Shown here in pieces: positions 1-36,575 of a stretch of DNA of 36,575 nt. Where the stretch lies: sequence record MZ375294.1, one strand, 5' to 3'. Source of the stretch: Escherichia phage T7. Position 1 is the stretch's first letter. Every line of letters starts with the position of its first letter. The notes under the pieces are model-generated. The model had not been told where the DNA came from. It worked only from the letters and a program-made list of their open reading frames with translations, and did not search any database. A program made the position numbers and the translations under genes.

Positions 1-143
1 TCTCACAGTGTACGGACCTAAAGTTCCCCCCATAGGGTGTACCTAAAGCCCAGCCAATCACCTAAAGTCAACCTTCGGTTGACCTTGAGGGTTCCCTAAG
101 GGTTTGTCTTTGGGTGTTACCTTGAGTGTCTCTCTGTGTCCCT
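1..143 (+). repeat. Left direct terminal repeat (T7-type terminal redundancy)
   Basis: Bases 1-143 are repeated exactly at 36433-36575; begins TCTCACAGTGTACGG as in T7 genome ends. Confidence 0.95.
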
Positions 144-908: not shown

Positions 909-1262
909 ATGGCTATGTCTAACATGACTTACAACAACGTTTTCGACCACGCTTACGAAATGCTGAAAGAAAACATCCGTTATGATGACATCCGTGACAC
1001 TGATGACCTGCACGATGCTATTCACATGGCTGCCGATAATGCAGTTCCGCACTACTACGCTGACATCTTGAGCGTAATGGCAAGTGAGGGCATTGACCTT
1101 GAGTTCGAAGACTCTGGTCTGATGCCTGACACCAAGGACGTAATCCGCATCCTGCAAGCGCGTATCTATGAGCAATTAACGATTGACCTCTGGGAAGACG
1201 CAGAAGACTTGCTCAATGAATACTTGGAGGAAGTCGAGGAGTACGAGGAGGATGAAGAGTAA
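909..1262 (+). CDS. ocr: Ocr, DNA-mimic anti-restriction protein (gene 0.3)
   Basis: 117-aa ORF, very acidic, ends [11 protein letters not shown]; first gene after the early promoters. Confidence 0.95.
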
Positions 1263-1306
1263 TGTCTACTACCAACGTGCAATACGGTCTGACCGCTATC
1301 TCATAA
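1262..1306 (+). pseudogene. Gene 0.4 remnant: first 12 codons fused to sequence just upstream of gene 0.7 (genes 0.4-0.6 deleted)
   Basis: ATG overlaps ocr stop (TAATG); [17 protein letters not shown] stops after 14 aa; 0.7 RBS follows directly. Confidence 0.7.
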
Positions 1307-1328
1307 CGAACATAAAGGACACAATGCA

Positions 1329-2408
1329 ATGAACATTACCGACATCATGAACGCTATCGACGCAATCAAAGCACTGCCAATCTGTGAACTTGACAAGCGT
1401 CAAGGTATGCTTATCGACTTACTGGTCGAGATGGTCAACAGCGAGACGTGTGATGGCGAGCTAACCGAACTAAATCAGGCACTTGAGCATCAAGATTGGT
1501 GGACTACCTTGAAGTGTCTCACGGCTGACGCAGGGTTCAAGATGCTCGGTAATGGTCACTTCTCGGCTGCTTATAGTCACCCGCTGCTACCTAACAGAGT
1601 GATTAAGGTGGGCTTTAAGAAAGAGGATTCAGGCGCAGCCTATACCGCATTCTGCCGCATGTATCAGGGTCGTCCTGGTATCCCTAACGTCTACGATGTA
1701 CAGCGCCACGCTGGATGCTATACGGTGGTACTTGACGCACTTAAGGATTGCGAGCGTTTCAACAATGATGCCCATTATAAATACGCTGAGATTGCAAGCG
1801 ACATCATTGATTGCAATTCGGATGAGCATGATGAGTTAACTGGATGGGATGGTGAGTTTGTTGAAACTTGTAAACTAATCCGCAAGTTCTTTGAGGGCAT
1901 CGCCTCATTCGACATGCATAGCGGGAACATCATGTTCTCAAATGGAGACGTACCATACATCACCGACCCGGTATCATTCTCGCAGAAGAAAGACGGTGGC
2001 GCATTCAGCATCGACCCTGAGGAACTCATCAAGGAAGTCGAGGAAGTCGCACGACAGAAAGAAATTGACCGCGCTAAGGCCCGTAAAGAACGTCACGAGG
2101 GGCGCTTAGAGGCACGCAGATTCAAACGTCGCAACCGCAAGGCACGTAAAGCACACAAAGCTAAGCGCGAAAGAATGCTTGCTGCGTGGCGATGGGCTGA
2201 ACGTCAAGAACGGCGTAACCATGAGGTAGCTGTAGATGTACTAGGAAGAACCAATAACGCTATGCTCTGGGTCAACATGTTCTCTGGGGACTTTAAGGCG
2301 CTTGAGGAACGAATCGCGCTGCACTGGCGTAATGCTGACCGGATGGCTATCGCTAATGGTCTTACGCTCAACATTGATAAGCAACTTGACGCAATGTTAA
2401 TGGGCTGA
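1329..2408 (+). CDS. 0.7: Gene 0.7 serine/threonine protein kinase (host transcription shutoff)
   Basis: 359-aa ORF with basic Arg/Lys-rich C-terminal segment; position and length match T7 gp0.7. Confidence 0.93.
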
Positions 2409-7318: not shown

Positions 7319-7353
7319 TGGGACTGTTAGATGGTGAAGCCTGGGAAACATAA
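7318..7353 (+). pseudogene. Gene 1.7 remnant (most of the gene deleted)
   Basis: ATG overlaps 1.6 stop (TGATGG); [14 protein letters not shown] stops after 11 aa, followed directly by the gene 1.8 start region. Confidence 0.7.
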
Positions 7354-7773: not shown

Positions 7774-8352
7774 ATGGCTAAGAAGATTTTCACCTCTGCG
7801 CTGGGTACCGCTGAACCTTACGCTTACATCGCCAAGCCGGACTACGGCAACGAAGAGCGTGGCTTTGGGAACCCTCGTGGTGTCTATAAAGTTGACCTGA
7901 CTATTCCCAACAAAGACCCGCGCTGCCAGCGTATGGTCGATGAAATCGTGAAGTGTCACGAAGAGGCTTATGCTGCTGCCGTTGAGGAATACGAAGCTAA
8001 TCCACCTGCTGTAGCTCGTGGTAAGAAACCGCTGAAACCGTATGAGGGTGACATGCCGTTCTTCGATAACGGTGACGGTACGACTACCTTTAAGTTCAAA
8101 TGCTACGCGTCTTTCCAAGACAAGAAGACCAAAGAGACCAAGCACATCAATCTGGTTGTGGTTGACTCAAAAGGTAAGAAGATGGAAGACGTTCCGATTA
8201 TCGGTGGTGGCTCTAAGCTGAAAGTTAAATATTCTCTGGTTCCATACAAGTGGAACACTGCTGTAGGTGCGAGCGTTAAGCTGCAACTGGAATCCGTGAT
8301 GCTGGTCGAACTGGCTACCTTTGGTGGCGGTGAAGACGATTGGGCTGACTAA
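7774..8352 (+). CDS. 2.5: Single-stranded DNA-binding protein gp2.5, truncated by premature TAA (192 aa; acidic C-terminal tail codons remain in frame downstream to 8472)
   Basis: ORF MAKKIFTSALGTAEPYAYIAKPDYGNEERGF...GGEDDWAD then TAA at 8350-8352; same frame continues VEENGYVASGSAKASKPRDEESWDEDDEESEEADEDGDF to TAA at 8470-8472. Confidence 0.9.
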   Translation: MAKKIFTSALGTAEPYAYIAKPDYGNEERGFGNPRGVYKVDLTIPNKDPRCQRMVDEIVKCHEEAYAAAVEEYEANPPAVARGKKPLKPYEGDMPFFDNGDGTTTFKFKCYASFQDKKTKETKHINLVVVDSKGKKMEDVPIIGGGSKLKVKYSLVPYKWNTAVGASVKLQLESVMLVELATFGGGEDDWAD

Positions 8353-8472
8353 GTTGAAGAGAACGGCTATGTTGCCTCTGGTTCTGCCAAAGCGAGCAAA
8401 CCACGCGACGAAGAAAGCTGGGACGAAGACGACGAAGAGTCCGAGGAAGCAGACGAAGACGGAGACTTCTAA

Positions 8473-8892
8473 GTGGAACTGCGGGAGAAAATCCTTGAGC
8501 GAATCAAGGTGACTTCCTCTGGGTGTTGGGAGTGGCAGGGCGCTACGAACAATAAAGGGTACGGGCAGGTGTGGTGCAGCAATACCGGAAAGGTTGTCTA
8601 CTGTCATCGCGTAATGTCTAATGCTCCGAAAGGTTCTACCGTCCTGCACTCCTGTGATAATCCATTATGTTGTAACCCTGCACACCGTTCCATAGGAACT
8701 CCAAAAGAGAACTCCACTGACATGGTAAATAAGGGTCGCTCACACAAGGGGTATAAACTTTCAGACGAAGACGTAATGGCAATCATGGAGTCCAGCGAGT
8801 CCAATGTATCCTTAGCTCGCACCTATGGTGTCTCCCAACAGACTATTTGTGATATACGCAAAGGGAGGCGACATGGCAGGTTACGGCGCTAA
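8473..8892 (+). CDS. 2.8: Gene 2.8 HNH-endonuclease-like protein (GTG start)
   Basis: 139-aa ORF with HNH-like motif HSCDNPLCCNPAH and Cys/His pairs. Confidence 0.75.
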   Translation: MELREKILERIKVTSSGCWEWQGATNNKGYGQVWCSNTGKVVYCHRVMSNAPKGSTVLHSCDNPLCCNPAHRSIGTPKENSTDMVNKGRSHKGYKLSDEDVMAIMESSESNVSLARTYGVSQQTICDIRKGRRHGRLRR

Positions 8893-36310: not shown

Positions 36311-36395
36311 ATGGAGTTCCTATAGTGACCTCTAAGAATGGTGATTATATTGTATTAGTATCACCTTAACTTAAGGGCCTATGGAGTTCCTATAG
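36311..36395 (+). repeat. Two 15-bp direct repeats atggagttcctatag (36311-36325 and 36381-36395) flanking the right-end deletion junction
   Basis: Exact 15-bp copies 70 bp apart between phiOR and the right terminal repeat. Confidence 0.8.
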
Positions 36396-36432: not shown

Positions 36433-36575
36433 TCTCACAGTGTACGGACCTAAAGTTCCCCCCATAGGGTGTACCTAAAGCCCAGCCAATCACCTAAAGT
36501 CAACCTTCGGTTGACCTTGAGGGTTCCCTAAGGGTTTGTCTTTGGGTGTTACCTTGAGTGTCTCTCTGTGTCCCT
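36433..36575 (+). repeat. Right direct terminal repeat
   Basis: Exact copy of bases 1-143. Confidence 0.95.

Follow-up and report, generated by a model that had tools for sequence, protein, structure and literature searches.

The window analysed here (the whole stretch of DNA, a complete T7 genome of 36,575 bp) passes from gene 0.3 (ocr) to gene 0.7 through a short open reading frame, in place of genes 0.4, 0.5, 0.6A and 0.6B. How was this segment lost, and was the loss designed? Aligned with the reference V01146 (39,937 bp), the window is collinear at about 99.8% identity and carries nine internal deletions and a small deletion in the terminal repeats. The deletion considered here is the first of the internal ones. 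A previous reading based on the sequence only had estimated from the T7 map that about 676 bp were missing, and the alignment gives exactly 676 bp, expressed as the net difference from V01146. In a base-by-base walk against this reference, the missing DNA is ref 1314-1989 or, equally, ref 1310-1985. The left flank matches up to window 1297 (ref 1313) and the right flank matches from window 1294 (ref 1986). The 4 bp CGCT at window 1294-1297 are common to both edges of the deletion, with zero inserted bases between them, and it was at this tetranucleotide that the sequence-only reading had placed the junction. The features of the region are as follows.

909-1262, plus strand: gene 0.3 (ocr), intact except for F54L; its stop codon overlaps the ATG of the remnant (TAATG).
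1262-1306, plus strand: remnant open reading frame of 14 codons and a stop, in which codons 1-12 of gene 0.4 are joined to intergenic sequence.
1289-1297, no strand: the retained single copy of an imperfect 9-bp direct repeat, CTGACCGCT.
1294-1297, no strand: junction microhomology CGCT, with the crossover to the right of the repeat mismatch and the C of the upstream copy kept (the form called delta-676b below).
1298-1328, plus strand: untouched leader of gene 0.7 (ref 1990-2020), including the ribosome-binding AAGGA.
1329-2408, plus strand: gene 0.7 (protein kinase), intact, its protein identical to that of the reference.

The left end of the deletion lies 36 nt inside gene 0.4, and the right end 17 nt beyond the stop codon of gene 0.6B. 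The deletion takes away codons 13-51 of gene 0.4, gene 0.5 and genes 0.6A/0.6B, in agreement with the earlier claim that genes 0.4, 0.5 and 0.6 are gone, and the minor E. coli promoter B (ref 1514) lies within the lost DNA. Translation of window 1262-1306 reproduced the 14-codon remnant that had been described: the gene 0.4 start, overlapping the ocr stop codon in TAATG, runs for 12 codons, after which the frame enters the 0.6B/0.7 intergenic sequence and ends there with Ile-Ser-stop. The sequence beyond the junction had been taken for the DNA immediately 5' of gene 0.7, and correctly so, since the 31-base stretch ATCTCATAACGAACATAAAGGACACAATGCA corresponds to ref 1990-2020 and the ATG of gene 0.7 comes next, at ref 2021. 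Ref 1430-1477, also lost, folds into a stable hairpin (-23.9 kcal/mol, z -3.05). This hairpin corresponds to the RNase III site R0.5, which is annotated in this interval in DQ100054, and the absence of R0.5 from the window, also part of the earlier account, is thus borne out.

The four shared bases are part of a larger element. The parental genome holds CTGACCGCT at ref 1305-1313, within gene 0.4, and CTGAACGCT at ref 1981-1989, 17 nt beyond the 0.6B stop codon. The two form an imperfect 9-bp direct repeat, CTGA(C/A)CGCT, identical at 8 of the 9 positions, and this is the element that recombined: exactly one copy (CTGACCGCT, window 1289-1297) is left at the junction, and nothing is inserted. 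The earlier description of a 4-bp microhomology is therefore right for the register in which this particular junction was resolved, and too narrow for the element as a whole, which spans 9 bp with one mismatch. Apart from CTGA(C/A)CGCT, no pair of 9-mers with one mismatch or none encloses nearly all of genes 0.4-0.6B. With endpoints drawn at random in the region, a microhomology of at least 4 bp arises with a probability of 0.0165, so the homology at the junction is above chance, and a junction that falls within two 9-mers matching at 8 or more positions arises with a probability of 0.0009. A longer, perfect repeat, the 10-bp CAATGGCACA at ref 1369/1822, is not used in any allele seen, and repeat length alone is therefore no predictor of the outcome.

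Where does this genome come from? Judged by its shared deletions and SNPs, the window belongs to the lineage produced by CiPGr, a genome-reduction study (Yuan, Shi, Jiang and Ma, Nucleic Acids Res 2022, PMC9825161; GenBank MZ375233-MZ375293 and OL964739-41). There, T7 went through 300 transfers on E. coli MG1655 cells equipped with SpCas9 and with plasmids encoding a library of guides and repair templates (50-bp arms). Up to 8 guides per gene were directed against the non-essential genes of T7, and two plaques were sequenced per 10 transfers (PMC9825161). The authors report that genes 0.4-0.6 are dispensable, that gp0.3 was targeted and never lost, presumably being needed in MG1655, and that about 60 point mutations accumulated per clone; they class the loss of a large "gp0.3-0.6" fragment as undesigned and probably due to CRISPR escape (PMC9825161). 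In its remaining deletions the window agrees with T7_300S, and it has many SNPs in common with that clone. With the CiPGr clones that carry its junction, the window also shares the accompanying set of designed deletions and many SNPs. No record in the searched collection is identical to the window, for which CiPGr siblings are the best matches; it pairs its junction with a T7_300S-type backbone and a larger deletion in the 19.5 region. The published sizes for T7_300L disagree: 36,937 bp, or 8.4% reduced, in PMC9825161, and 37,262 bp (6.7%) in GenBank (MZ375291), where the clone carries a 563-bp allele of the early region; the window, at 36,575 bp, is reduced by 8.42%, equal to the 8.4% quoted in the paper for its smallest T7. 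The paper gives neither junction sequences nor the repeat (PMC9825161), and both were worked out in the present analysis.

Typing of the sibling clones revealed that at least five deletion alleles of the early region arose in the CiPGr experiment, each at direct repeats. The states of the region are these.

Wild-type early region: transfer 10 only (T7_10L/10S); no repeat junction.
1,480-bp deletion, ref 1257-2736: perfect 13-bp repeats AGGAAGTCGAGGA; end of ocr fused to gene 0.7; T7_20L, 20S and 30S.
563-bp deletion, from about ref 1342/1353 to 1904/1915: two registers ("a" and "b") of a 9/12 imperfect repeat; transfers 30 to 300.
delta-676a, 676 bp: CTGA register of CTGA(C/A)CGCT, reading CTGAACGCT; 11 clones, transfers 40-280.
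delta-676b, 676 bp: CGCT register of CTGA(C/A)CGCT, reading CTGACCGCT; 5 clones, transfers 220-270, and the window.

The wild-type region of T7_10L and T7_10S contradicts the possibility that the parent stock already lacked the segment. The 1,480-bp allele is seen only at transfers 20-30, after which alleles that keep ocr replace it; selection to keep ocr would explain its disappearance. The 563-bp alleles are the most frequent among sequenced clones from transfer 30 to 300. Their form "a" keeps the three mismatched bases of the downstream copy, and form "b" keeps those of the upstream copy and joins at GTGGC. The two 676-bp forms differ by a single base, at the repeat mismatch. The junction of the window is found, identical base for base, in five GenBank siblings (T7_220S, 240L, 250L, 270L and 270S); outside the CiPGr records it was absent among the matches listed from the GenBank phage collection, and from the IMG/VR, JGI metagenome and GTDB genome collections that were searched. 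The recurrence of the 676-bp deletion at one repeat in two junction forms could mean independent events, the sister strands of a heteroduplex, or a point mutation. The haplotypes around these alleles are mosaic, with all four combinations of the early-region and 4.3-4.7 alleles present, and recombination therefore erases the lineage signal of linked markers. As an example, a flanking haplotype with 717G-1086G adjoins delta-676a in 280L and delta-676b in 240L.

That the 676-bp deletion was repeat-mediated is supported by the 8/9 repeat, by siblings in which the mismatch was resolved in the alternative way, and by the published classification of the loss as not designed. Very probably, we are looking at an undesigned deletion in a CiPGr laboratory T7, which arose by illegitimate recombination between the imperfect 9-bp repeats, was driven by Cas9 breaks and was selected for loss of the targets. 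What is directly observed is the deletion itself, its repeat, the sibling clones and the provenance; the part played by Cas9, the choice between annealing and slippage, and the number of steps, we infer. By its provenance from the CiPGr lineage, the deletion arose under nuclease targeting of the very genes that it removes, and a Cas9 break probably both stimulated and selected the event. Between the repeats, Cas9 would have cut both strands within the dispensable genes. After resection of the ends, the short complementary repeats would have annealed, or a template switch would have taken place between them. Finally, the flaps would have been trimmed and the ends ligated by the replication and recombination machinery of T7, leaving a single hybrid repeat copy with the switch in its CGCT half; T7 genes 1.3, 2.5, 3, 4, 5 and 6 are all present in the window. 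Selection may then have favoured loss of the Cas9 targets in 0.4-0.6B, with the host-required ocr and gene 0.7 kept. In ref 1278-1972, delta-676b removes 62 of 64 candidate NGG sites and keeps 2; the number left is 1 in delta-676a and 8 in the 563-bp alleles. The remnant retains one complete candidate protospacer with a CGG PAM (ref 1281-1300), which counts against the explanation by target loss. In 1994, Kong and Masker reportedly found that double-strand breaks between repeats strongly stimulate deletion in T7.

The sequence-only reading had called the junction a classical repeat-mediated deletion. Repeat-mediated is an apt description, in view of the 8/9 repeat, the registers of the siblings and the undesigned loss; classical is not, since the genome comes from serial passage under Cas9 and not from a Studier-type strain. 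The event resembles the classical T7 deletions (the Studier mutants and the work of Masker) in affecting the non-essential early region, in its short flanking repeat, and in keeping one copy without filler; it differs in that its repeat is imperfect (8/9) and that it took place under programmed Cas9 pressure. A second relative is the 59-nt deletion in gene 0.7 by which T7 escaped a type I-E CRISPR system (Strotskaya et al., 2017, PMC5389539). There, too, part of a dispensable early gene was lost and the targeted protospacers were gone, whereas the present case involves Cas9, a multiplexed library and a larger deletion of four ORFs at once.

Was the segment lost in one step or in two? The 563-bp deletion is wholly nested in the 676-bp deletion, and the window could descend from a genome that already carried the former and then lost a further 113 bp between the same 9-bp repeats, under continued Cas9 attack on the leftovers of 0.4 and 0.6B. 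Such an origin would refine the explanation given above and does not contradict it, and we consider it quite possible, if somewhat short of an even chance. Recombination should be easier between repeats separated by 113 bp than by 676 bp, which favours two steps. Among the sequenced clones, the wild-type region occurs at transfer 10 only, the 563-bp alleles dominate transfers 30-300, and delta-676b first appears at transfer 220. Moreover, the 563-bp alleles leave 8 candidate NGG targets, of which the extra loss of 113 bp removes 6, and the other deletions and the right-flank SNPs of the window (3456T, 3904G, 5754T and 5988T) match the 563-bp clones 290S, 300L and 300S, and not the other delta-676b clones. 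Against this, the two histories lead to an identical final sequence; with no more than two clones sequenced per 10 transfers, rare wild-type genomes could have persisted unseen; the mosaic haplotypes imply that recombination could move an existing delta-676b segment onto a 300-type backbone; and the sister allele delta-676a, present from transfer 40, could be the source instead. T7_5t1 (OL964739, positions 1400-1410) carries the 563-bp deletion together with A1985C, by which its 9-bp repeats, separated by 113 bp, become identical (CTGACCGCT). This clone could be an intermediate towards delta-676b, a templated conversion, a recombinant or the consensus of a mixed sample. We also considered A1985C as a Cas9-escape change that would explain the C of the window, and rejected it: the protospacer with a CCA PAM that would cover it, as read by hand from the sequence, lies outside annotated genes and is already destroyed in the 676-bp alleles. 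It is tempting to speculate, though we put it forward rather tentatively, that CRISPR escape here was stepwise and nested, with 563 bp lost first, cleavable stubs of 0.4 and 0.6B left behind, and then 113 bp lost between the next pair of repeats outwards, and that the a/b pairs possibly represent the two strands of heteroduplexes formed by single-strand annealing, which segregated without mismatch repair.

Recombination stimulated by Cas9 has to be weighed against replication slippage independent of Cas9, in which a shorter early region, or the loss of gp0.4-0.6, would be advantageous or neutral in serial passage. The genes are dispensable (PMC9825161), and T7 is reported to undergo spontaneous deletion between short direct repeats (Pierce and Masker, 1989). 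This account is nevertheless unlikely. At least five deletion alleles in about 1.5 kb became detectable within 40-220 transfers, under a library designed to cut those genes, and the CiPGr authors themselves ascribe the losses to CRISPR escape (PMC9825161). Furthermore, according to the title of Kiro et al. (2013), gp0.4 raises the competitiveness of T7, and its loss would therefore be unexpected without another selective force.

The crossover itself might have been in CTGA, as in delta-676a, with the C of the window introduced later by an A-to-C mutation or a short gene-conversion patch; the CGCT microhomology would then be only apparent. The two forms are one base apart, delta-676a precedes delta-676b by about 180 transfers, the 717G-1086G haplotype lies beside both (280L and 240L), and some 60 point mutations accumulate in each clone. 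A mutation would, however, have to turn one specific base into that of the upstream copy, for which a rough estimate from about 50 SNPs, 36.5 kb and 3 possible bases is about 5e-4. The a and b registers of the 563-bp deletion differ at three positions, for which a point mutation is insufficient; alternative resolution of imperfect repeats therefore does occur in the CiPGr system, and derivation from delta-676a by mutation or conversion becomes the less likely course. We regard it as quite improbable. Finally, a designed "cassette-gene" deletion, or the product of a chimeric or mis-synthesised repair template, can be dismissed as very improbable: the window does hold several template-designed deletions, and only 42% of the cloned cassettes were error-free (PMC9825161), but those of 1.4, 4.7, 5.3 and 7.7 start at the ATG with zero microhomology, as templates with 50-bp arms would give (the contrast with codon-anchored deletions that had been pointed out from the sequence), the ends of the 676-bp deletion do not fall on gene boundaries (36 nt inside 0.4, and 17 nt past the 0.6B stop codon, in the repeat), one template would not yield two junction variants at the repeat mismatch, and PMC9825161 lists the loss as undesigned.

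Several other changes were observed in the window. The deletion of 536 bp inside gene 1.7 (window 7345-7348, ref 8197-8732) has a 4-bp GAAA overlap and stops short of the overlaps with both neighbouring genes; it was probably designed, and the homology is then due to chance. At window 36374-36376, a deletion of 356 bp (ref 39366-39721), which surrounds gene 19.5 and reaches well past it, joins at AGG; siblings carry different, smaller deletions in the gene 19.5 region, of about 189 and 204 bp, and the 356-bp deletion fits the second class of undesigned loss, that of a "gp19.5" fragment (PMC9825161). The terminal repeats (window 1-143 and 36433-36575) are identical to each other and 143 bp long, compared to 160 bp, and both have an 18-bp deletion (ref 99-116), an additional C at ref 26 and G37T. 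An A-to-G change at window 388 (ref 405) converts the phiOL T7 promoter TATAAGGAGA into the consensus TATAGGGAGA, and is found in nearly all typed siblings from T7_50S on, T7_60S being without it. Alone among the clones compared, the window has an additional A at about position 584 (after ref 600), by which the spacer of the E. coli promoter A2 becomes one base longer. In Ocr, F54L results from a T-to-G change at window 1070 (ref 1086), which is found beside all four 563-bp and 676-bp alleles. The position is the eighth from the TGG PAM of a candidate SpCas9 protospacer, CGCTGACATCTTTAGCGTAA (ref 1074-1093), and the change resembles an escape mutation in the seed, within a gene that the phage must keep.

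What does the phage lose with this segment? As read from the genome, it no longer has the FtsZ inhibitor gp0.4, gp0.5, gp0.6A/B, the RNase III site R0.5 or promoter B. The earlier description of gp0.4 as an inhibitor of host cell division agrees with the literature, in which Kiro et al. (2013), as relayed by PMC4944311, identify it as an inhibitor of FtsZ. The 51-residue protein has a central helix-turn-helix as its modelled FtsZ-binding element, and the 14-residue remnant peptide cannot substitute for it. A report from 2026 adds that gp0.4 triggers the CapRel defence protein of Enterobacter chengduensis (PMC13423816). With R0.5 gone, we infer that ocr, the 14-codon remnant and gene 0.7 should be found on one RNase III processing product. 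RNA structure at the junction was not significant (fold z = +0.42 sense and -1.38 antisense), and 0 promoter-like sites, no terminator and 0 Rfam matches were found there. Small antisense ORFs across the junction (for example 1213-1329, 38 aa, with a TTG start) were set aside as mechanical and unsupported.

The 676-bp deletion is thus real and already known, as a by-product in a published lineage of engineered phage, formed by a mechanism that has long been known. The present analysis adds the imperfect 9-bp repeat, the two registers per deletion and a possible nested two-step history. The finding matters mainly for annotation: the window is an engineered and evolved T7, its differences from the wild type should not be taken for natural variation, and the 676-bp deletion is a by-product, of illegitimate recombination or of CRISPR escape, and was not designed. 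For phage engineering, the allele series is a small but concrete case in which multiplexed Cas9 pressure on T7 repeatedly gives deletions at short imperfect repeats that spare the ocr gene demanded by the host. If the paired alleles are indeed the segregated strands of heteroduplexes, these clones would show, as a natural series, the way in which Cas9 breaks are resolved in T7.
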